Source: a virus
Taxonomy: Duplodnaviria > Heunggongvirae > Uroviricota > Caudoviricetes
Length of the DNA stretch: 20,430 nt
Strand: one strand, 5' to 3'
IMG/VR virus record: IMGVR_UViG_2541047888_000001
Below, piece by piece: positions 4,908 through 20,430 of the stretch. The notes under the pieces are model-generated. The model was given only the letters and a program-made list of their open reading frames with translations, had not been told where the DNA came from and ran no database searches. Within the stretch, counting starts at the first letter, position 1. Every line of letters begins with the position of its first letter. A program made the translations under genes and the position numbers.

Positions 4908-5968
4908 CCGCCCAGAAGAAGACATTTTCACTGGCTGGTATGTCGCCAAAATCCAGCAATATGACAGCAAAGTCAGGCATTAATACAGCAGATACAAGCA
5001 AAGTTTATCATTTGCTGGTGGTAGGAGCGGATGCCTTAACTATGTCAGAAATTACGGTCGATGGTGTTAGCGTTGAGAAGGTCAGCGGCTGCGCCAGAGA
5101 ATTTCTGGTCGTAGATGGCTTTCTCTGCTCGCGTAGTGACTCCACAAAAACCTTCGTCCACGCGCGTGACGTTAACGAAATGAGCGCGATGTACTGTGCT
5201 TCTGGTTCTTCCAATAGTGAGTTTTCGGAGTCCATAAAAAAGAGCTTGCCGTTATGCGGCAACACGGTTTATGGTTATAAGGCACCTCATAAAACGGGTG
5301 CCGGGATTGGCGTCCTGGTAAATCGAATGGCGACATATGACGCGCCGAGCGTCTTTTTTTATGTCGTAGGTCTGACTCACCCATTTTTTGGGCGTTGGTG
5401 TATAATCCAGCGCCTTTGTCAATCAATGGTGGCTCAGGCAGGGGCTTCTTCGGAAGCGCCGGTATCCATTCGAGCCGGTTACGCCAACCCTGTCTGGGCT
5501 ACCACCAGCGAAATTGGCGTTTCCGGTGGTAGCGTTACATGCTATCGAATGGAGGCTGCCACATGCTGGCTACTACCCCTACCCAAAAACCGCAATTTAT
5601 CTGGATTATCGCCGCAGTTCGCCGCGATTGCCCGACAATTACCGCCAAAATTCATCATATTGCTGCCGAGTCTGAACGCGATGCTCGCCGTTCTCTGGTG
5701 CGCGATCACGTCTGCTTTTTTGCTGGTCGTATCCGCATGGAGGTGGCACATGATTAAAACCTACGATGTGCATATGGATCCCCTCGAACGCACAAGCCAG
5801 ATCATCACACTGACAGAAGTGATTAACGACATTCTGGTGAGCAACTCTCCCTCACGAGACGAAAGACTGAAGGCGTTACTCGCGATATTGGATCTCGCCG
5901 TTCGTGACGTTCATTTCCTGCTGGAAGGTGGCGAAATGCCAGTAAAAACGGGGGAAACCAATGAATAA
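4901..5968 (+). CDS. long ORF of uncertain validity (355 aa frame); N-terminal ~220 codons possibly real, remainder overprinted by the icd-like gene and containing an internal start at 5750
   Basis: GGAGG RBS 8 nt before ATG 4901 and coupling to the upstream gene argue for a real start; the segment overlapping 5563-5757 translates to an implausible peptide in this frame; no in-frame stop until 5968. Confidence 0.3.
5563..5757 (+). CDS. Icd-like (host cell division inhibitor-like) small protein
   Basis: 64 aa from ATG 5563 with GGAGG 7 nt upstream; [24 protein letters not shown]...[22 protein letters not shown] resembles Icd-like proteins of P4-type elements; stop overlaps the next start (ATGA). 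Confidence 0.6.
   Translation: MLATTPTQKPQFIWIIAAVRRDCPTITAKIHHIAAESERDARRSLVRDHVCFFAGRIRMEVAHD
5750..5968 (+). CDS. small hypothetical protein (72 aa)
   Basis: ATG 5750 preceded by GGAGGTGGCAC, nearly the same RBS context as the icd-like gene; coupled to the next ORF. Confidence 0.45.
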   Translation: MIKTYDVHMDPLERTSQIITLTEVINDILVSNSPSRDERLKALLAILDLAVRDVHFLLEGGEMPVKTGETNE

Positions 5969-10687: not shown

Positions 10688-10712
10688 GCTTCTTCATGTG
10701 CGTAGAAAAGGT

Positions 10713-10823
10713 GTTGGTTCAGTTGGTTCAGTTGGTTCAATTTGTAAAGAGTATTGTTTTATAAGGATTTTATTCTTTTTATTGAACCAACACTGAACCA
10801 ACAACACGGTATTTTGAACCAAC
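10713..10823. repeat. Iteron-like array A: 3 tandem GTTGGTTCA, AT-rich spacer, 3 inverted TGAACCAAC
   Basis: Perfect 9-mers at 10713-10721, 10722-10730, 10731-10739 and inverted copies at 10783-10791, 10794-10802, 10815-10823, separated by ~43 bp of AT-rich DNA; directly downstream of the primase gene. Confidence 0.7.
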
Positions 10824-10875
10824 ACAATGTGACTGAATTGATGCGCACAACACCTGGCTGGCATCAGAGAGTGTT

Positions 10876-11449: not shown

Positions 11450-11911
11450 ATGGAACTAAAATTTATTGATAACCCTGTGCGATTACAGGCCTTTCTTAAC
11501 GAGCCAGGCAATACCGAAAATATTGTTGAGCCGGGGCACACGTACTACATCAAGCCTGATGCGGTATATCTCGGCATCTACGAAGGATTAGTGCTGGCTG
11601 GCGTTCATGAAGTGCGTAACTTCTGGCATAGCGTTGTTGAATGCCATGCGGTGTACGACCCCGGATTCCGTGGTGAATATGCACTGCAAGGACATCGATT
11701 ATTCTGCAAATGGCTTCTCGAAAACTCACCATTCCTTAACAGCATCACTATGGTTCCTGACACCACGAAATACGGACGGGCAATTATCCGTTTGCTTGGC
11801 GCTACCCGTGTTGGTCACCTTGATGATGCTTATATCAGATGTGGTAAACCCGTCGGCGTAACGCTTTATCAGTTAACTCGGCAACAATATAAGGAATTCA
11901 GCGAATGTTAA
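11450..11911 (+). CDS. hypothetical protein (153 aa)
   Basis: ORF with GGATGG upstream; stop overlaps the start of the next gene (ATGTTAA); no family recognised. Confidence 0.65.
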   Translation: MELKFIDNPVRLQAFLNEPGNTENIVEPGHTYYIKPDAVYLGIYEGLVLAGVHEVRNFWHSVVECHAVYDPGFRGEYALQGHRLFCKWLLENSPFLNSITMVPDTTKYGRAIIRLLGATRVGHLDDAYIRCGKPVGVTLYQLTRQQYKEFSEC

Positions 11912-12582
11912 TTACCCATATAGCTCATAAACATCTCAATCGTGCCGTATACGAAAAAGGCGGTGATGGTGGTGCCTCTAAAGCTCAGGCGAAGGCCCAG
12001 CAGCAGGCAATTGATTTGCAGCGCGAGCAGTGGAATACGGTGATGAATAATCTCAAGCCGTATGCAGAAGTCGGATTGCCTGCTTTACAACAACTACAAG
12101 GACTGATGACTCTGGAAGGGCAGAATAAAGCCGCGAATGATTTCTTTGGTTCTGGTTTATATAAAACACAGGCAGATCAGGCCCGTTATCAGAACCTTGT
12201 CTCAGCAGAAGCTACCGGGGGGCTTGGCTCAACAGCTACCAGTAACCAGTTATCTTCCATTGCGCCCATGCTTTATAACAATTGGCTTAGTGGGCAAATG
12301 CAAAATTATGGAAACCTGCTAAATGTCGGGATGAATGCGGCATCAGGGCAGGCAACGGCAGGGCAAAACTACGCCAATAATACCGGACAACTCTTGCAGG
12401 GGCTTGGCGCTATTCGTGCAGGTCAGGCGCAGCAGCCATCCAGTCTTGCGCGTGGTATTGGTGGGGCAGCATCAGGCGCTTTAGCGGGTGCGCAACTTGG
12501 TTCCGTTGTTCCTGGAATAGGAACTGCGGCCGGCGCTATTGGTGGTGGGCTTATTGGTCTTGTTGGGGGGCTTGGATTCTAA
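11905..12582 (+). CDS. low-complexity Gln/Ala/Gly-rich protein (225 aa) with C-terminal glycine-zipper hydrophobic segment; possible phage ejection-protein-like (size comparable to P22 gp7)
   Basis: Translationally coupled at both ends; C-terminus GAASGALAGAQLGSVVPGIGTAAGAIGGGLIGLVGGLGF; the ejection-protein link is an inference from size, order and composition only. Confidence 0.7.
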   Translation: MLITHIAHKHLNRAVYEKGGDGGASKAQAKAQQQAIDLQREQWNTVMNNLKPYAEVGLPALQQLQGLMTLEGQNKAANDFFGSGLYKTQADQARYQNLVSAEATGGLGSTATSNQLSSIAPMLYNNWLSGQMQNYGNLLNVGMNAASGQATAGQNYANNTGQLLQGLGAIRAGQAQQPSSLARGIGGAASGALAGAQLGSVVPGIGTAAGAIGGGLIGLVGGLGF

Positions 12583-14003
12583 TGGCGACATGGCAACTTG
12601 GCGGGCTGCCTAGCATGGCACCGCAAAATGATAATGCTCCTCGTTCTTCCGTTCCTCAGCCTGTGCAGTATCAGCAGCAGCCAAACGTAGGTTTAATGGC
12701 GCTACAGGGGCTAAGAGGCGTTGCTGAGATTAATCAGCAGGCACGTCAACAACAGCGTAAAGCAGAGTTTCAGAAAGCATATGCCGGGGCTTTTGAGTCT
12801 GGAGACAGAAACAAAATGCGCAGTCTTATTTCTGAGTATCCAGAAGAATTTGAAAGCGTTCAGAAAGGGATGGGCTTTATTGATGACGACCAGAGAAATT
12901 CTATTGGTCATCTTGCGACTAGTGCTCAAATCGCATCTTCGCTCGGAACTGGGGCATTTGGAAAATTCATAGCAGATAACGAAGATGAAATGCGTCGCTT
13001 GGGAATTTCTCCTGAGTCTGTTGCCGAAATGCATGTTAATGATCCACAGGGGTTCCAGCGGCTTGCTGGTAGTATGGCACTGTTTTCTCTCGGTCATGAG
13101 AAGTATTTCGATATCAAAGATCAAATGGAAGGTCGGGATATTGAGCGTGGCAAGTTGGCAGAAACAATCCGCAGCAATCAGGCTGGCGAAGCACTTCAGG
13201 CGAGAGGGCAGGATATTAGCCGAGCAAATGCGTTAACGTCAGCATATGCACCAACAGCAGCAATGCAGAATTACAATCAGTACGCTCAAATGTTAAAGGC
13301 GGATCCAGAGGGGGCGGCGGCATTTGCGGCAGCGGCTGGAATTAATACAAACGCCAAAAAATTAATGAGTGTTAGAGAAAACGATGATGGCACTGTCACA
13401 AAATACTACACAGACGGAAGTGAAGAGCAGGGAAAACTAAACCAGCCAATATCTGGAGATGGGTTTCGTCCAATAGCTTTGCCAACAGCCCAAAAGATCA
13501 TGGAAAAGTCGCCAGAAGGGGCTAAAAAAGCTGCTGGATTTGCATACAGGGTTAGGGATGCTCTTGATTCAATAGATACACTGAAAGACCAGCTTAGCCC
13601 ACAGCGAGTGGCGATCATTAATAATGCTTTGGGTAATGGGACGCTGGCTAACTTAACGCTCAGCCCAACAGAACAGCAATACGTTGTTAATGCTAATGAC
13701 GCAATAATGGCAATACTCCGTCAGGAAACAGGGGCAGCCATCGTACCTGCTGAAATGTCAAAATATTATCAAATGTATTTCCCTCAGCCTGGCGACTCCA
13801 CAAAAACCATTGATACCAAGCGCCGGAAGATGGAAAACCAGTTCAATTCGCTGAAAGCTGCTTCTGGTCGAGCTTATGATGCTTTGCGGGTTATTTCAGC
13901 AGTTGACAGAGGAACTTCTTCTTCGTCGCAGACATTGCCGCAATCTGAGCAGGTATCACAGCCAGCAGCCAGCAGTAACTTTTCTTCACTATGGGGTGAT
14001 TAA
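12582..14003 (+). CDS. hydrophilic Gln/Ala-rich protein (473 aa); possible ejection-protein-like (size comparable to P22 gp20)
   Basis: TAATG coupling at both ends; long ORF with protein-like composition; no catalytic motif recognised. Confidence 0.75.
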   Translation: MATWQLGGLPSMAPQNDNAPRSSVPQPVQYQQQPNVGLMALQGLRGVAEINQQARQQQRKAEFQKAYAGAFESGDRNKMRSLISEYPEEFESVQKGMGFIDDDQRNSIGHLATSAQIASSLGTGAFGKFIADNEDEMRRLGISPESVAEMHVNDPQGFQRLAGSMALFSLGHEKYFDIKDQMEGRDIERGKLAETIRSNQAGEALQARGQDISRANALTSAYAPTAAMQNYNQYAQMLKADPEGAAAFAAAAGINTNAKKLMSVRENDDGTVTKYYTDGSEEQGKLNQPISGDGFRPIALPTAQKIMEKSPEGAKKAAGFAYRVRDALDSIDTLKDQLSPQRVAIINNALGNGTLANLTLSPTEQQYVVNANDAIMAILRQETGAAIVPAEMSKYYQMYFPQPGDSTKTIDTKRRKMENQFNSLKAASGRAYDALRVISAVDRGTSSSSQTLPQSEQVSQPAASSNFSSLWGD

Positions 14004-16108
14004 TGGCTAAAGCATGGAAAGATGTTATCGCCTCTCCACAGTATCAGGCGTTAGCACCAGAACAAAAAGCGCAGGCTCAGGAGCAATACTTCAATGAAGT
14101 CGTGGCCTCGCAAGCCGGAGAAAGTGTAGAGCAGGCTAAGCAGGCTTTTTATGCTGCCTATCCACTACCATCAACGAATGAAATAGACCGATCCCAATCA
14201 GCAACTCAAAATATTCAACATACATCATCTGATAATTCTCTTGCGTCAGGGTATGCAAAGTTAGCTACTCAGCAAAGAGAGGGGCTTGAGCGTTCAGCAG
14301 AACAGGGAGCCAGTCTTGGGGCTGCGATGCGCGATGCTATAACAGGCGAAAGCCGAATGACTCCAGAGATGGAGAGACTGCAAAATGTCGACCTTGCCCC
14401 AGAGTTAACCTCACTCAGCATGGATGCTCTAAAAGCTCGATGGTCTCAACTTTTCGGCTCTGACGCATCTCAGGAAAAGATTCTTCAGAGCATGGGAGCG
14501 AAATTAAGGCAGGATGAGAAGGGTAACACTATCGTTTCCCTGCCATCCGGTGATTATGCTCTGAACAAGCCGGGTTTATCGCCGCAAGACGTGGCATCGT
14601 TTCTGGCTAATGCGCTGGCGTTTACACCAGCGGGCAGGGCTGGAACGGTGCTTGGTGCCATAGGAAAATCAGCAGCTACAGATTTAGCACTACAGGGAGC
14701 CACTAGCCTTGCTGGTGGAGAAGATATTGATCCGTTACAAACGGTAATTTCTGCTGGCATTGGTGGTATTGGTAAGGGGCTGGAAAATACAGCGAGTGCG
14801 GTTTCGAGGGCTGTTCGTGGTGATATGTCGCCTGAAGCAAAGGCTGCTGTCGACTTTGCATCGGAAAGAAATCTGCCGTTAATGACCAGTGACATGCTAA
14901 AAGATAAAACCTTTATGCAGAGTCAGGCTCAGACATTAGGCGAAAGAGTTCCTTTTTTTGGAACCGGTAAGAATCGGCTGAATCAACAACAAGCACGAGA
15001 AAATTTAGTCAGAACATTTAGCGATGGTCTGGGTGGCATTTCTGATAAACAGCTTTATGAATCTGCGACTAAAGGGCAACAAAAATTCATTGAGGCAGCA
15101 GGAAAGCGATATAACCGCATAATTGACGCTATGGGGGATACCCCTGTCGATCTCTCAAACACGGTAAAAGCTATCGACAATCAGATTGCCGTGTTAAGCC
15201 GCCCGGGCAAATCTCAGGATAGAGCCGCGGTAAAAGTCTTGCAGCAATTTAAAGACGATATCACCAGCGGACCAAATGACCTGCGTCTGGCGAGGGAAAA
15301 CAGAACCGATCTTCGAAAGCGATTTATGGCGTCATCTGACACTGTTGATAAAGATACGCTCCAGAAAGCCAGCGATATTATCTACAAGGCATATACGGCG
15401 GATATGAAAAAAGCCGTAGCCAAAAATCTTGGAGCAGACGAAGCCATTAATATGGCAAGGGTTGATCGCTCATGGTCTAAATTTAATGACATGATGGGAA
15501 GAACGCGCGTTCAAAAGGCAATAGCCAGCGGCAAGGCCACGCCTGAGGATGTAACAAAACTCGTTTTTAGCCAAAACCCATCAGAACGTTCTCAGCTTTA
15601 CAGGCTTCTGGATGACAATGGTAGGCAAAACGCACGAGCAGCCATAGTTCAGAATGCTGTAGATAAGGCGACTGATCCGTCTGGAAATATCAGTGTTGAG
15701 AAGTTTATTAATGCGTTACACCGGAACAGGAAGCAATCAGCAACTTTCTTTAAAGGCGTACATGGAAAGGAACTGGACGGCGTTATTAAATACCTCAACG
15801 ATACAAGACACGCGGCAAAAGCGAACGTTCAAAACTTAAATGGTCAGCAGCTTTATGGTTTGTTAGTTGGTGGTGGCATCATAAACGCAGCAGTATTAGC
15901 GGGGATGCTAAAAACGGCTGCGTTTGTTGTTCCTGCTGCTGGTGCCGTAGGCGGAGCAGCGAAGGCATACGAAAGCCCTGTTATACGAAATGCCTTGTTA
16001 CGTCTGGCAAATACGCCAAAAGGTAGCACAGCATATGACAGAGCGATCAGTACGGTCACACAATCGCTCACCAGAGTCGCACAGGCATCACAAAAAGAAG
16101 CTCAATAA
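14003..16108 (+). CDS. large Gln/Ala-rich protein (701 aa) with C-terminal hydrophobic Gly/Ala segment; possible ejection-protein-like (comparable to P22 gp16)
   Basis: TAATG-coupled to the upstream gene; C-terminal LYGLLVGGGIINAAVLAGMLKTAAFVVPAAGAVGGAAKAY putative membrane-interacting segment. Confidence 0.75.
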   Translation: MAKAWKDVIASPQYQALAPEQKAQAQEQYFNEVVASQAGESVEQAKQAFYAAYPLPSTNEIDRSQSATQNIQHTSSDNSLASGYAKLATQQREGLERSAEQGASLGAAMRDAITGESRMTPEMERLQNVDLAPELTSLSMDALKARWSQLFGSDASQEKILQSMGAKLRQDEKGNTIVSLPSGDYALNKPGLSPQDVASFLANALAFTPAGRAGTVLGAIGKSAATDLALQGATSLAGGEDIDPLQTVISAGIGGIGKGLENTASAVSRAVRGDMSPEAKAAVDFASERNLPLMTSDMLKDKTFMQSQAQTLGERVPFFGTGKNRLNQQQARENLVRTFSDGLGGISDKQLYESATKGQQKFIEAAGKRYNRIIDAMGDTPVDLSNTVKAIDNQIAVLSRPGKSQDRAAVKVLQQFKDDITSGPNDLRLARENRTDLRKRFMASSDTVDKDTLQKASDIIYKAYTADMKKAVAKNLGADEAINMARVDRSWSKFNDMMGRTRVQKAIASGKATPEDVTKLVFSQNPSERSQLYRLLDDNGRQNARAAIVQNAVDKATDPSGNISVEKFINALHRNRKQSATFFKGVHGKELDGVIKYLNDTRHAAKANVQNLNGQQLYGLLVGGGIINAAVLAGMLKTAAFVVPAAGAVGGAAKAYESPVIRNALLRLANTPKGSTAYDRAISTVTQSLTRVAQASQKEAQ

Positions 16109-16127
16109 CTGGTTAGCCATGGATGGC

Positions 16128-16742
16128 TTAGATATCTCTGCTGTCTCCATTAGGAAATAAAAGATAATATGGATTTGCCTTTCTTGCTCTCCTTGCTTCA
16201 CCTGGATACCTGTTAGTCAGTAGCTTGCATAATGAGCAGAGAACAACACTCAAGAAAATTCCGAATGAGAAGATCAATATCTCACCAAAAATCAATGGCG
16301 ATATTAAATTTTCAGGATTTAATGATAAGTCAATGTTAAAAACATATTGAGCAATACCAGTAAGTATCAATAATATAATCCCTATGGAATACATTGCTGT
16401 TTCCCAAACATCAGACAGTCTATTTTTGAATTGTTCGCTGGAGTAGTAGTTTGTTATAAAGTCAGAAAAATCACTCTCATATGCATCATCTTTAGGTGAT
16501 GTTAGAAATCCTCTGTCTCTCCATACCTTCTCCCAATTAGTCGATTCTTTTTTTAAGGAAAAATAAATATGTATTGCCAAAAGGATAGCCAAAATTGGTG
16601 TTAGCTCTAAAAAATAGAATGTTATGGAATAAATAATACTGCCATGTTCAAACTCATCTGGGACTATCATGTATGCACAAAAATAAATTGAAAAGTACAC
16701 CATGCAGATAGTTAGCAATTCTTTAGTATCTTTTCTGCTCAC
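16128..16742 (-). CDS. AT-rich integral membrane protein (204 aa, ~4 predicted TM helices), unknown function
   Basis: GTG start preceded by AAGGGGG on the minus strand; four hydrophobic stretches (e.g. LLTICMVYFSIYFCAYMIV, IIYSITFYFLELTPILAILLAIHIYF); markedly lower GC than flanking genes; convergent with the 701 aa gene. Confidence 0.7.
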   Translation of the reverse strand: MSRKDTKELLTICMVYFSIYFCAYMIVPDEFEHGSIIYSITFYFLELTPILAILLAIHIYFSLKKESTNWEKVWRDRGFLTSPKDDAYESDFSDFITNYYSSEQFKNRLSDVWETAMYSIGIILLILTGIAQYVFNIDLSLNPENLISPLIFGEILIFSFGIFLSVVLCSLCKLLTNRYPGEARRARKANPYYLLFPNGDSRDI

Positions 16743-16932
16743 ACCAACCCCCTTTAGCGTTGTTTAGAATGGCAATCATCATATATCCAAGACATGGCAT
16801 TTGGTACATAGCTTGGGTCGGGATTTCAAATCCGCCCCCGTTGATGGGGTCGTTACAGTACGCGCATATCCGCTTTATGTGAAACAGGAAGATTTTTCTG
16901 ATATCACTGCCACAGCAAAACACCAATTTCGA

Positions 16933-17232
16933 GACAAGTACGCGCGCGAGGGGTATCAGTTGCAAAATTTTTTGCAGCTGCGTCCGACCAGTACGCACAC
17001 GATGGCGGGGAGCAGCATAAAACTGTTCTCTACATAGACAGAGTGGTGGTGATGTGTTGATTATCGGCGTATATGCGCACAGGACGCGCTATGACGATGT
17101 TTTATGCGGGTACACCAATCACATGTATCTGATGTGATAAATCGTGTTACATGACATCTCATGTTGTGCTGGTGGTTATCACGACGTTCTGAATCTGGCC
17201 TTTGCCTGATATTTTGCGACAAGTACGCGCGC
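16933..17232. repeat. 16 bp direct repeat GACAAGTACGCGCGCG (two copies) within the long non-coding region
   Basis: Copies at 16933-16948 and 17217-17232; palindrome TGCAAAATTTTTTGCA at 16962-16977 lies between them. Confidence 0.4.
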
Positions 17233-17383
17233 GTAGCATCGAAATTATCGGATGGCGTATGCTGCTGGCAATATGAAGACCGATAGTATTAACCGAAAAG
17301 CGATTAAGGAGTGCCAACTTTTCAGTAGAGAAACTAGCCAGCACAGGGAAATGTAGAAATTACCCAATTAATAGGTAAAAGTT

Positions 17384-17500
17384 ATTGACACACCCTGTAG
17401 TGGATAACGATATGAATAAAAACCACATATAGTGGTTTTTCGTTAGTGATGATAGTATCTATGTTAGTTTCCTAAGTAACTGTGCATTGACATGTGGATA
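17384..17500. promoter_or_regulatory. Duplicated TTGACA + DnaA-box-like (TGTGGATAA / AGTGGATAA) elements flanking a hairpin, upstream of the Abi gene
   Basis: TTGACA 17384-17389 with AGTGGATAA 17398-17406; TTGACA 17486-17491 with TGTGGATAA 17492-17500 (reverse complement of the DnaA box TTATCCACA); hairpin AAAAACCAC-ATATA-GTGGTTTTT at 17417-17439. Confidence 0.35.
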
Positions 17501-17612
17501 ACTTCGGATAGAGTTACAATCAACTGAGCCCGGCCCCCTGGCTTTATCTTGTCTTAGATGAGAAATTGTTATGGCCGGGCCTTCTTGTATCTGGAGGTAG
17601 GAAACCTTTTGT

Positions 17613-18575
17613 ATGGCTGTTCCGGTTAAGGTTCATAAAGAATATGATGAACTTGTCGATTTATTGCTGTCTCGGGGTATGGATGTGCCAGATCGCGAAC
17701 ATGCTATCAAGAAAATCTCACAAGTAGGCTACTACCGATTATCAGGCTTTTGGTACCCCTGCCGAATCCCCCATATAACAACAGACAATATTAGAACCAG
17801 ACTCGATCAGGTTCGTCCAGGTACTAATTTTCGCGCAGTATATGACCTCTATTTATTCGATAAAAATCTGCGTTTGCAGATGATGAATGCGTTAGAACGC
17901 ATTGAGGTTTATGTTCGGTCAGTTATTGCTCATGAGCTTGGTAAGATATCTCCTTTAGCATATCTTGATGACTCGCTAATAAATCCAAAACACTTTAGAC
18001 CACGTTCCCATGGTCGCCCAAGCGCCAGAGAAGAATGGATAAATAAACATAATGCCGAGATTGCTAAAAGTCGCGAAGACTTTATCAAATGGCATGAAAA
18101 CAAGTACGAAGGTCTTCCTTTCTGGGTGGTTATTGAAGTGTGGGACTTCGGCTTAATGTCAAAGTATTATGCGATGCTAAAAGACAGCTATCGCAACAGG
18201 ATACTATCTAGGCTAGGGATAGCGGCAGGCAATGGAGCTATCTTCCAAAACTGGCTTAGCGCAATGAATGTGCTAAGGAATCGGTGCGCTCACCATTCAC
18301 GCATCTGGAACAAGGTCAACGAACCAAGATTAATGCCTTTGCCAAATGAGCCGTACTTTGAACAATTAAATATGAATGATGATGCGTACGAAAGAATGTA
18401 CGGAATGATCGCTGTGTTATGGTTTTTAGTGAAAAAAATTGGACCGGGATCTGACTGGATAAAAAAAGTTGCCAACCTTGTAGATAACAAGCCTAACTTA
18501 CCAGGATGTAACCTGACAGCCATGGGATTACCTGATAATAACGGTTTCCCAAGGCATTTATTTGATATTGAATAA
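17613..18575 (+). CDS. Abi_2 family (AbiD/AbiF-like) abortive-infection protein, predicted HEPN domain
   Basis: 320 aa; GGAGG RBS; family-typical motifs ISQVGYYRLSGFWYP, FDKNLR, PFWVVIEVWDFG and the HEPN Rx4H motif RNRCAHH (about nt 18276-18296). Confidence 0.8.
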   Translation: MAVPVKVHKEYDELVDLLLSRGMDVPDREHAIKKISQVGYYRLSGFWYPCRIPHITTDNIRTRLDQVRPGTNFRAVYDLYLFDKNLRLQMMNALERIEVYVRSVIAHELGKISPLAYLDDSLINPKHFRPRSHGRPSAREEWINKHNAEIAKSREDFIKWHENKYEGLPFWVVIEVWDFGLMSKYYAMLKDSYRNRILSRLGIAAGNGAIFQNWLSAMNVLRNRCAHHSRIWNKVNEPRLMPLPNEPYFEQLNMNDDAYERMYGMIAVLWFLVKKIGPGSDWIKKVANLVDNKPNLPGCNLTAMGLPDNNGFPRHLFDIE

Positions 18576-18576
18576 A

Positions 18577-19032
18577 TTATAGCGATGGCGCTGAATGTAG
18601 CGCCACTGATAACTTTTCAGCATTGCTTCCCTGACGCTTCCACGCGCTATAAATATCTTTATCCCATGCCTTACCAGCTTTTGTTTGATAGCCTGCTTCA
18701 TTGATCCGTTCAGCTATCACGCGCCCATTATCAAATCCCTGTCGGATGGTATCGGCAATGATCTTTATAACTGCCGTTTCGTTATATGGCTTTGGTGGGA
18801 TGTTCGGCTTTCCGGCAATAAGCGACGCAGCGGCTTTTTCCATGCGCTCCACCAGCCCAAGCATTCGTGAATCAATAGACTTTTCCGGCTGTCCCAGCTT
18901 CATGCGAATCGCATCAACAAGCCAGGAGGTTTTATCCCCTCCAGAAGCGAGAACAGACCGATTAAACTCATCCTGCAATTCAGATGGGATGCGGAACGCG
19001 ACCAGATTAGATTTGCTCATTGCAAAGACCAT
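18577..19032 (-). CDS. ribbon-helix-helix domain protein (151 aa), putative transcriptional regulator
   Basis: N-terminus SNLVAFRIPSELQDEFNRSVLASGGDKTSWLVDAIRMKL fits the RHH (CopG/Arc/MetJ) pattern; weak RBS; convergent with and abutting the Abi gene. Confidence 0.6.
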   Translation of the reverse strand: MVFAMSKSNLVAFRIPSELQDEFNRSVLASGGDKTSWLVDAIRMKLGQPEKSIDSRMLGLVERMEKAAASLIAGKPNIPPKPYNETAVIKIIADTIRQGFDNGRVIAERINEAGYQTKAGKAWDKDIYSAWKRQGSNAEKLSVALHSAPSL

Positions 19033-19067: not shown

Positions 19068-19134
19068 TAACACTGTTATACGCTCAAATATTAGCCAGAA
19101 AATAACGGACCAATCACAAAGCTATCGCTGTGTT

Positions 19135-19255
19135 GTTGGTTCAGAGCTGGGCTGTGTTGGTTCAAAATGAGTTGATGTTGGTTCAATATTTCAGAAAAAA
19201 CACAATAAAAACAACGATCTTTACAAATTGAACCAACTGAACCAACTGAACAAAC
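19135..19255. repeat. Iteron-like array B: 3 spaced GTTGGTTCA, AT-rich spacer, 3 tandem TGAACCAAC (inverted relative to array A)
   Basis: GTTGGTTCA at 19135-19143, 19156-19164, 19177-19185; TGAACCAAC at 19229-19237, 19238-19246 and degenerate TGAACAAAC at 19247-19255; the reverse complement aligns with array A including the spacer start ATTTGTAAAGA. Confidence 0.7.
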
Positions 19256-19291
19256 ACCTTTTTGCTTATCTATATAATCTGAGAGGCAGAA

Positions 19292-19920: not shown

Positions 19921-19939
19921 TTCCTATTATCGCACCATT
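19921..19939. other. attR of island 1 / attL of the tandem second island (partial tRNA-Thr 3' end copy)
   Basis: TCCTATTATCGCACCATTC matches tRNA 3' end 1428-1447 with a single G deletion; followed by a sequence homologous to the island-1 int-proximal region. Confidence 0.6.
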
Positions 19940-20091
19940 CTAACGTCTCCCCAAGTCTACTCAAGTATTTAAAAACCTCTTATAATCAGTATATTAATGC
20001 CCCTTTTAGTCTTTTGACGTCTATTTAAGTACCCCAAACTCTACAAGCAATTGAGGGGATTTGCTGTTCAGTTTAGTGGAGATACCCCCAA

Positions 20092-20430
20092 GTGAAACTC
20101 AATGCCCGTCAAATAGACACTGCCAAGCCAAAAGAGAAGGCTTACAAGTTGGCTGATGGTGGTGGTCTGTACCTCCTGGTAAAACCTGGTGGAGGAGAAT
20201 ATTGGCGTCTCAAGTATCGTGTAGCTGGTAAAGAGAAGCTGTTAGCACTAGGTGTGTATCCTGAGGTCACCTTAGCTGATGCTCCTGCAAAACTTGAAGA
20301 AGCTAAAAGAGGTATCTCTGGGGGAATCGATCTGATGGAAGTGAAGCGAGAGGAAAAGATTGCCCGGGAAACGCAGTTAAACAACACCTTCAAAGATATT
20401 GCCCTTGAGTGGCACAGTAACAAATTATAA
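20092..20430 (+). CDS. int: second P4-type integrase, N-terminal portion (GTG start); in-frame TAA at codon 113 at the window edge, possibly disrupted
   Basis: 112 aa, ~92% identical by eye to the island-1 integrase N-terminus; island 1 reads AGC AAA TTA AAA AAA TGG here, island 2 reads AAC AAA TTA TAA. Confidence 0.6.
   Translation: MKLNARQIDTAKPKEKAYKLADGGGLYLLVKPGGGEYWRLKYRVAGKEKLLALGVYPEVTLADAPAKLEEAKRGISGGIDLMEVKREEKIARETQLNNTFKDIALEWHSNKL

Follow-up and report, generated by a model that had tools for sequence, protein, structure and literature searches.

The subject of this analysis is an 870-base gap (positions 16743-17612) in a 20,430-nucleotide stretch of DNA, henceforth the window, which is filed as a virus of the Caudoviricetes (IMG/VR record IMGVR_UViG_2541047888_000001) and consists of Escherichia coli DNA at proA-thrW. 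The gap separates a leftward open reading frame (ORF) of 204 amino acids (16128-16742) from a rightward gene of the Abi_2 family (17613-18575); its longest internal ORF has at most 91 amino acids, and the RefSeq annotation of an identical E. coli copy places nothing in it. We consider it probable, while stopping short of confidence, that the gap is a mosaic of four pieces in an integrative satellite-type island: a constant block (16743-17242), a fragment of a phage small-terminase gene (17246-17303), AT-rich DNA that travels with the Abi gene (17304-17486), and the front end of the Abi cassette (17487-17612), which holds a conserved structured RNA.

The mosaic character emerges from the way the gap breaks up among genomes. 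In a megablast comparison with 5426 complete E. coli genomes the gap was matched in 545, only 127 of which cover at least 80% of it; the remaining matches end at query position 500, 536, 553-561 or 790, some begin only at position 73 or 84, and the gene to the left of the block varies too. The end points of the matches define 16743-17242 as a constant block and the DNA beyond it as variable cargo: the slot at 17243-18609 is occupied, depending on the island, by Abi, by a second Abi allele, by small helix-turn-helix (HTH) genes or by ORFs of unknown kind. Islands that have other cargo in place of Abi still retain the block, so its repeats and palindromes have nothing to do with Abi. An earlier note on this DNA had proposed a single switch of 870 base pairs (bp) governing both flanking genes, a picture that is not supported: the left 500 bp are a module of the island backbone. 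As the gap shows, a long intergenic region of a mobile island that looks structured can consist of several unrelated parts placed side by side. As a whole it had no match among 50,697 phage records by blastn at the default threshold, and Rfam searches, at gathering score and at E<=10, returned nothing relevant within it.

A structured RNA upstream of the Abi gene

The features of the Abi leader and its gene are the following:
17487-17514, plus strand: sigma-70 promoter of the Abi leader RNA, TTGACA-16-TAGAGT (promoter scan; conserved spacing in homologous loci)
17520-17590, plus strand: Abi-associated structured RNA (covariance model R1, 47.1 bits, E=1.4e-13; covariation)
17594-17612, plus strand: abi ribosome-binding region, GGAGGTAGGA (sequence; minimum-free-energy fold)
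17613-18575, plus strand: Abi_2/AbiF-family HEPN protein, presumed toxin (Pfam Abi_2, E=3.6e-52; PDB 8VZ6 chain A, E=7.5e-34)

Judged by comparison of homologous loci, the RNA at 17520-17590 is real: conserved, structured and tied to the Abi gene. In the window it forms a 53-nucleotide hairpin in which 17528-17535 pairs with 17573-17580 as the outer stem, followed inward by a CCC bulge and an inner hairpin, and it ends in the tail CUUCUUGUAU; in the minimum-free-energy fold the ribosome-binding region of abi can pair with the CCUUC of this tail. We assembled 80 loci encoding homologues of Abi (88-40% identity) in Enterobacterales, Pseudomonas, Vibrio, Desulfobacterota, cyanobacteria and other groups, and nearly all present the same layout before the start codon: AAUNGN comes first, then a GC-rich stem of 8 bp, the unpaired bases CYC and an inner hairpin that varies in length and begins with U-A and G-U; a single unpaired pyrimidine, the arm that closes the outer stem, and CUUCUUGUUU complete it. 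A second E. coli Abi allele, whose protein is 50% identical, has the same upstream DNA as far as 17532, diverges beyond, and retains the hairpin by way of a G-C to A-U compensatory exchange.

Covariation over homologous loci, a check that the earlier note had itself suggested, came out strongly in favour of the structure. When 43 distinct sequences are aligned with MAFFT, paired cells make up 95.8%, 13 of the 17 pairs show changes on both sides, and the covariation score is 0.544 as against at most 0.138 with slid partners (none of 500 shuffles scored as high); for 69 distinct matches the corresponding values are 94.9% and 0.513. The covariance model R1, built from the 43-sequence seed without the window copy and without enterobacterial sequences, matches the window at 17520-17590 only, 22 nucleotides before the ATG. 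Over 858 kb from 82 sources it returned 78 matches, one per source, with 77 just upstream of abi. In a Candidatus Electronema locus (L052, 2984-3044) the distance from the RNA match to the downstream Abi match by which the locus was retrieved is about 3 kb, and this RNA possibly belongs to a second Abi cassette.

The promoter is likewise fixed in its position: its end is separated from the outer stem by 11-14 nucleotides in 61 of 66 homologous loci (12-13 in 59), which places the start of transcription about 6 nucleotides before the stem, and neither reading of the sequence nor the promoter scan gave a second promoter between the RNA and abi. The suggestion that the region may encode a non-coding RNA was thus borne out, with the second of two TTGACA elements as its promoter, but the location of the RNA coincides with none of the features that had been listed in its support. 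These features (repeats, palindromes, a hairpin, TTGACA elements and DnaA boxes) are all present, some of them at coordinates shifted by one or two bases.

The same promoter bears on the idea that a DnaA- or regulator-controlled switch, with DnaA boxes beside TTGACA elements, sets the expression of the flanking defence genes. The single perfect DnaA box of the window (17493-17501, minus strand) does sit in the spacer of the promoter shared by the RNA and abi; a box with one mismatch (17399-17407) lies 94 bp upstream in the same orientation, adjoining the other TTGACA, and boxes with at most one mismatch are enriched window-wide (11 against 4.95 expected, a number reached in 1 of 100 shuffles). 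However, of the TTGACA elements at 17385-17390 and 17487-17492 only the second has a good -10 hexamer, and the left gene is separated from the boxes by the 500-bp block, which travels independently of Abi. Moreover, the orthologous promoters of Edwardsiella, Rahnella, Photorhabdus, Xenorhabdus and Raoultella keep the -35 and -10 hexamers and their spacing, but their spacers are unrelated and lack the box. Since orthologues do not keep the box, DnaA control does not count as a trait that the cassette has conserved; the window and the second E. coli allele, whose DNA is the same here, both have the box, which may be a local E. coli feature. We therefore hold such a switch to be improbable.

What the RNA might do is suggested by the protein that follows it. 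The match to PDB 8VZ6 chain A (Abi family protein, PbAbiF) spans residues 10-307, and in the HEPN motif RNRCAHH (Rx4-6H) the residues R222, N223, R224, A226, H227 and H228 are invariant and C225 nearly so. Published work has shown AbiF proteins to be RNase toxins of the HEPN class, kept inactive by an upstream non-coding RNA in the manner of type III toxin-antitoxin systems (PMC12373285, PMC12737573, PMC13064643). From this published mechanism, together with the homology to 8VZ6, we infer that the window RNA is an AbiF-type antitoxin RNA. Thus, 17487-17612 would constitute the front end of a type III-like toxin-antitoxin or abortive-infection cassette: a constitutive-looking sigma-70 promoter would start transcription near 17521, the first ~60 nucleotides would fold into a two-stem hairpin with fixed bulge nucleotides, and the U-rich tail might serve as a leaky terminator or as a mask of the ribosome-binding site, with read-through yielding the abi mRNA. 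By homology with the PbAbiF/AbiFr and AbiFCd/RCd22 pairs, the RNA is predicted to bind the HEPN RNase, which would stay inactive until infection disturbs the balance.

One result speaks against the antitoxin assignment. The Rfam abiF model (RF03085, gathering score 37 bits) found nothing at E<=10 in 16600-17750 or in the Pseudomonas orthologue, and the role is thus deduced from protein homology and synteny; the positive control of the model, the DNA upstream of abiF in phage phiC2, scored 37.6 and 19.5 bits. R1 in turn has no match in the phiC2 abiF target. As neither model detects the other's RNA, the window RNA was rejected as an instance of the Rfam abiF motif.

Set beside the known AbiF/Abi_2 type III systems (PbAbiF-AbiFr, PDB 8VZ6; AbiFCd-RCd22 of C. 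difficile), the locus shares with them a homologous HEPN toxin, a short structured RNA immediately upstream on the same strand with a predicted sigma-70 promoter of its own, and a U-rich tail that is followed by the toxin ORF. The plan of the RNA is also shared, with a GC-rich outer stem, an asymmetric internal loop carrying conserved unpaired bases, and an inner hairpin. They differ in the dimensions of these parts: whereas RF03085 describes 37 nucleotides with a 6-bp outer stem and the larger internal loop (CAAAUC) on the 3' side, the window RNA family has 43-65 nucleotides, an 8-bp outer stem and the conserved CYC bulge on the 5' side. Further, RCd22 comprises two RNA copies as opposed to the one found here. 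The Abi leader RNA would widen the AbiF RNA-antitoxin principle, a proposed ancestor of Cas13 guide RNAs. It forms a widespread family without an Rfam entry, extending over Proteobacteria, Desulfobacterota and cyanobacteria, and its covariation-supported structure and fixed promoter make it ready for experiment.

The constant block and its small-terminase-like repeats

The block and the features within and next to it are as follows:
16743-17242, no strand assigned: backbone block of the island, conserved and non-coding (found in 545 of 5426 complete E. coli genomes at 95-98% identity)
16821-16833, no strand assigned: palindrome GGATTTCAAATCC (sequence; one base differs in 1 of 16 copies)
16926-16948, plus strand: repeat copy A, ATTTCGAGACAAGTACGCGCGCG, an element apparently derived from a small-terminase gene (terS) (17/18 identical to Sf6 terS nucleotides 165-182)
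16961-16976, no strand assigned: palindrome TGCAAAATTTTTTGCA, between copies A and B (sequence; centre polymorphic between copies)
16986-17005, plus strand: degenerate repeat copy B, GACCAGTACGCACACGATGG (80% identity with copy A; matches the Sf6 core at 11/12)
17211-17233, plus strand: repeat copy C, ATTTTGCGACAAGTACGCGCGCG, at the right end of the block (19/20 with one gap against Sf6/HK620 terS nucleotides 163-182)
17246-17303, plus strand: ES18-type (Terminase_2) small-terminase gene fragment at the left edge of the cargo slot (34/39 nucleotides identical to ES18 gene 1 codons 24-36)

Among 16 distinct copies of the block, frameshifting indels of 1-2 nucleotides occur after 16839, 17006 and 17035, a pattern that marks the block as non-coding. 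Its left edge contains the Shine-Dalgarno sequence of the leftward gene (16748-16754, minus strand) and, in other islands, also the first codons of that gene. A search of the E. coli genomes by blastn with 'distant' settings yielded no diverged versions of the block, which makes phylogenetic footprinting impossible, and the database records labelled Salmonella proved to be the same E. coli-type islands. A small protein-coding gene, the other account that the earlier note had considered for the region, would have to be a plus-strand ORF of 105-123 amino acids that is intact in some islands (e.g. L088, 5029-5400). Some strains do have the intact 123-codon form or in-frame variants of 105 codons, and in several genomes RefSeq places a 'hypothetical protein' under the match. 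Yet the ORF is frameshifted in the window (78 amino acids) and truncated in its commonest database forms, the indels that break it are polymorphic among copies, and its homologues, found in E. coli and Salmonella records only, are inconsistent in length and frame. It matches no Pfam or PHROG family, no ribosome-binding site was seen upstream of its ATG at 16767, and the copies of the repeated DNA motif would be read in different frames within it. We regard a protein encoded by the block as very improbable indeed.

The direct repeats reported earlier are real, the second copy lying one base to the right of the 17217-17232 first given: the exact 16-mer GACAAGTACGCGCGCG occurs at 16933-16948 and 17218-17233 as part of a longer match of 23 nucleotides with 91% identity, and weaker copies are found at 16856, 16989 and 17080. 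By our calculation about 1e-4 exact 16-mer repeats are expected by chance within 870 bp. Allowing up to two mismatches, AGTACGCGCG has 14 matches window-wide, of which 5 fall within 375 bp on one strand. In IMG/VR the exact 16-mer gives mostly chance single matches, apart from ~20 loci that represent the island.

The ejection genes of the island, described below, point to P22-like podoviruses as candidate helpers, and for this reason the gap was compared with the small terminases of Sf6 and ES18. The repeat consensus ATTTYGNGACAAGTACGCG(CGCG) is close to nucleotides 163-183 of the Sf6/HK620 small-terminase gene. Copy A translates as AKHQFRDKYAR and aligns with residues 51-62 of Sf6 TerS (AKHEDFRDKYAK), and copy C aligns with WL...FCDKYAR; copy C includes an exact 14-mer of Sf6/HK620 terS and is invariant in all 16 distinct copies. 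For a match of 17/18 between a 423-nucleotide gene and both strands of 870 nucleotides, we calculate a chance expectation of ~6e-4. The agreement extends to alleles: copy A occurs as TTTCGAGACAAG... in 10 of the 16 distinct copies and as TTTCGTGACCAG... in 5. With its two linked polymorphisms the latter haplotype, TTTCGTGACCAGTACGCG, reproduces a natural terS allele of a prophage (L183, E. coli 08_3323) at 18/18 positions; copy C matches the Sf6/HK620 allele. A fourth copy follows PerC in islands of the L127 type. In a comparison of five Sf6-type terS alleles, the 5' half of the gene is divergent, and the stretch matching the repeat ranks among its best conserved parts. Full-length Sf6/HK620-type terS prophages are present in 229 of the 5426 E. 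coli genomes, and strain 14614 (NZ_CP077460.1) carries both such a terS and the block.

Beyond the block, relaxed blastn of 17246-17303 against phages matched only the terS genes of ES18 and its relatives (E ~1e-3), and tblastn aligned YRMAYAAGNMK with YRTAYAADKMK. L088-type islands contain a longer, frameshifted remnant (phage terS match E=9e-9; ...RLLDNGKGAELRGEIKQ against ...KLQDNPKIALRIKELRGEIKQ in ES18), and the length of this fragment varies between island classes. It would be either another fragment for recognition by a terminase or a relic worn down as cargo was replaced. An early alignment of 17177-17245 to the N-terminus of ES18 TerS was discarded, as that stretch fits the Sf6-type motif better, if weakly.

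Leavitt et al. (2013) reportedly placed the Sf6 pac site within the portion of gene 1 that codes for the DNA-binding domain of TerS. From the terS matches we infer that the repeats are pac-site mimics, which would let the terminase of a P22-like helper package the island; ATTTTCGCGACAAGTACGCG and its copies in the island may be targets of the Sf6/HK620 TerS. On this account the block combines two roles: it provides the leftward SieA-like cassette with its ribosome-binding site and probably also with its promoter, and it holds three to four direct copies of an 18-20-nucleotide element apparently taken from the DNA-binding-domain end of an Sf6/HK620-type terS. The ES18-type piece would be the leftover of a second terS, again as mimic or relic, and 17304-17486 is cassette DNA with a terminator-like hairpin. 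Seen as a whole, the island might belong to an E. coli satellite family, undescribed so far, that parasitises P22-like podoviruses of the HK620/Sf6 type with its own ejection proteins and SieA-like gene, and, in place of a terminase, with an array of pac mimics, derived from the part of terS that codes for the DNA-binding domain in at least two terminase families and tracking helper alleles, between two defence-cargo slots (holding e.g. an AbiF-type RNA-toxin pair); we offer this larger picture tentatively, as a possibility that is on balance doubtful. A limited literature search found no description of satellites that have P22-type ejection genes and a SieA-like protein and are devoid of capsid, portal and terminase genes. 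The structured RNA belongs to a known kind of system, and the terS-derived array, if our interpretation of it is right, would be the more novel part of the locus.

Several points count against this interpretation. In the flanks of the repeats, similarity to Sf6 terS is not significant, as 95-604 of 2000 shuffles scored as well, and the homology is thus confined to 18-20 nucleotides. Sf6 packaging starts across a broad region, and the pac site of ES18 is unknown (PMC11260489). The repeat copies stand at the edges of variable cargo, where recombination scars would also be expected, and the high identity among block copies could reflect recent spread instead of selection.

The last points lead to two other accounts of the block. 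One holds that the gap outside the Abi leader is dead DNA, i.e. decayed remnants of phage genes left by cargo replacements, conserved through recent spread and devoid of present function. The frameshifting indels and the many truncated ORF versions fit this account, as do the progressive erosion of the ES18-type fragment by island class (breakpoints 17242, 17278 and 17298-17303; longer in L088), the identity of the block (95-98%), which is similar to that of neighbouring genes, and the failure to find a divergent homologue outside E. coli-like genomes. It does not readily explain that the block stays intact while genes on both sides are swapped, that copy C is invariant in 16 of 16 distinct copies, that one 18-20-nucleotide piece of terS recurs three to four times in different frames with the rest of terS absent, or that copy A haplotypes match living phage alleles; we judge it unlikely, though deserving of some weight.

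The other account takes the repeats as recombination sites or homology anchors, boundary elements by which defence cargo is exchanged. The islands in which only positions 1-500 are matched diverge at 17242, exactly at the end of copy C, the fourth copy of L127-type islands stands just after PerC and before another variable stretch, the A-B interval is lost in some variants, and two prophage fusions have occurred at the same base, ~17126, inside the palindrome CACAT-N7-ATGTG. Against it, a dedicated recombinase is not evident beside the slot, the right border of the slot (18610) has no repeat copy, the left cargo breakpoints are scattered (17242, 17278, 17298-17303), and the identity to terS alleles is left unexplained; we think this account quite unlikely. 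None of the rivals explains the terS allele matches as well as pac mimicry does.

Two of these observations deserve a fuller description. The A-B interval (16949-17002, 18 codons in frame, including TGCAAAATTTTTTGCA) is absent in some island variants (proteins P0123 and P0124), a loss that is consistent with recombination between the copies. The fusions concern a CPS-53-like prophage at thrW in two E. coli genomes (L091 and L092, ~6000), in which the prophage is truncated differently and is joined to the same base of the block; the junction lies within CACAT-GTATCTG-ATGTG, which could be a recombinase site or a hot spot of DNA breakage. As for the other palindrome, GGATTTCAAATCC overlaps a weak leftward TTGAAA, a -35-like hexamer, and may be an operator. 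In one IMG/VR contig (L120, 9240-9817) the block is interrupted at the equivalent of 17005 by an insertion sequence with a transposase-like ORF, which we take to be of the IS66 family.

Pac mimicry would have precedents in other satellites, whose packaging signals imitate those of their helpers: the cos of P4 is identical to that of P2, Staphylococcus aureus pathogenicity islands have pac and cos mimics, and E. coli phage-inducible chromosomal islands have cos mimics. As in these, a putative helper recognition sequence lies here in a non-coding stretch by accessory or defence cargo, in a block between structural-type genes and a cargo hotspot; the cos of P4 is placed similarly relative to the P4 hotspot. 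Unlike in these, the putative signals are short coding pieces of terS, present three to four times in diverged form and matching different phage alleles; a second terminase family is represented by a fragment alongside, and the island has P22-type ejection proteins and neither terS nor capsid-size genes. In P22, the pac site is an asymmetric stretch of 22 bp within terS (PMC9611059). With the pac sites in P22-like terS genes (P22 gene 3; Sf6 gene 1) the repeat agrees in size and class of location, as it corresponds to nucleotides 163-183 of Sf6/HK620 gene 1, but it differs from them in lying outside any functional terS gene. If the repeats are packaging signals, a helper would be identified for a family of islands that about 10% of complete E. 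coli genomes contain, the satellite would have collected recognition sites for several terminase variants, and the repeats could help in locating the Sf6-type pac site.

The cassette DNA, the flanking genes and the island

Three further features belong to the surroundings of the block and the leader:
16128-16742, minus strand: gene of a SieA-like inner-membrane protein (superinfection exclusion), 204 amino acids (PHROG 7745 'superinfection exclusion SieA-like', E=4.4e-4)
17366-17383, plus strand: box AATTAATAGGTAAAAG, consensus ATTGATAGGTAAAA (alignment; common to Abi cassettes of five genera)
17418-17440, no strand assigned: hairpin AAAAACCAC-ATATA-GTGGTTTTT (sequence and fold; partly conserved in Rahnella and Raoultella cassettes)

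The AT-rich DNA at 17304-17486 lies upstream of the Abi cassette and travels with Abi. The box ATTGATAGGTAAAA occurs also upstream of abi in L006, L007, L008 and L014, at varying distances from the RNA promoter. The hairpin is preceded by an A-run and followed by a T-run, and could possibly be a bidirectional intrinsic terminator that insulates the Abi cassette; a terminator scan of the gap flagged none, this hairpin included.

The assignment of the leftward gene to SieA agrees with its C-terminal TNRYPGEARRARK, which follows the SieA motif FnRYPnEAnnFNK (PMC10461980) with its RYPxEA signature, and with its place after homologues of the P22 genes 14, 7, 20 and 16, the same order as in P22 (16, then sieA). 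Other islands have different ORFs at this position, and the gap is thus bordered by a variable cassette on its left as well.

The island as a whole, of ~18.5 kb, sits in the window at a tRNA-Thr gene (1369-1444) and is bounded by att-like direct repeats (1439-1513 and 19932-20006). Past its end, a second integrase gene starts at 20092; the start of this gene (20052-20351) is 88% similar to 1570-1869. The sequence of the att-like repeat and of the second integrase start shows two P4-type islands in tandem at thrW. Chromosomal sites of the island are thrW and yicC-dinD, and a remnant lies near ykgL. Its first part encodes an integrase, a small HTH protein, an AntA/B antirepressor, Ash and an Icd-like protein. 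Beside the Ash and Icd-like genes there are gathering-level Rfam matches to isrK RNA (5282-5359) and to C4 antisense RNA (5422-5509), and this group makes up a P1/P7-type immunity cassette within the island. A TOPRIM/DUF927 primase is encoded too, and the ejection-protein homologues occupy, with the SieA-like gene, 11450-16742. After the ejection genes come the leftward 204-codon membrane-protein gene, the gap, the Abi_2 gene, a leftward ORF of 151 amino acids, and PerC. Genes for capsid, portal or terminase were not found in the island.

Inverted clusters of the repeat GTTGGTTCA lie at 10706-10826, just after the primase gene, and at 19130-19262, before PerC, with 55-nucleotide arms that are 93% complementary. 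In sequence they look like the ori/crr pair of P4, suggesting a primase-dependent origin of that kind. Both clusters lie outside the gap, whose own repeats differ from these iterons in sequence; a replication origin in the gap was for these reasons rejected.

The homologue of gp16 in NC101 and L177 bears an extra lytic transglycosylase domain. The Abi cassettes of Rahnella (L007), Xenorhabdus (L009), Raoultella (L014) and Rodentibacter (L081) are also located in islands with a related primase, integrase, PerC or 151-codon ORF, and from these contexts the cassette seems to travel with this type of island across genera.

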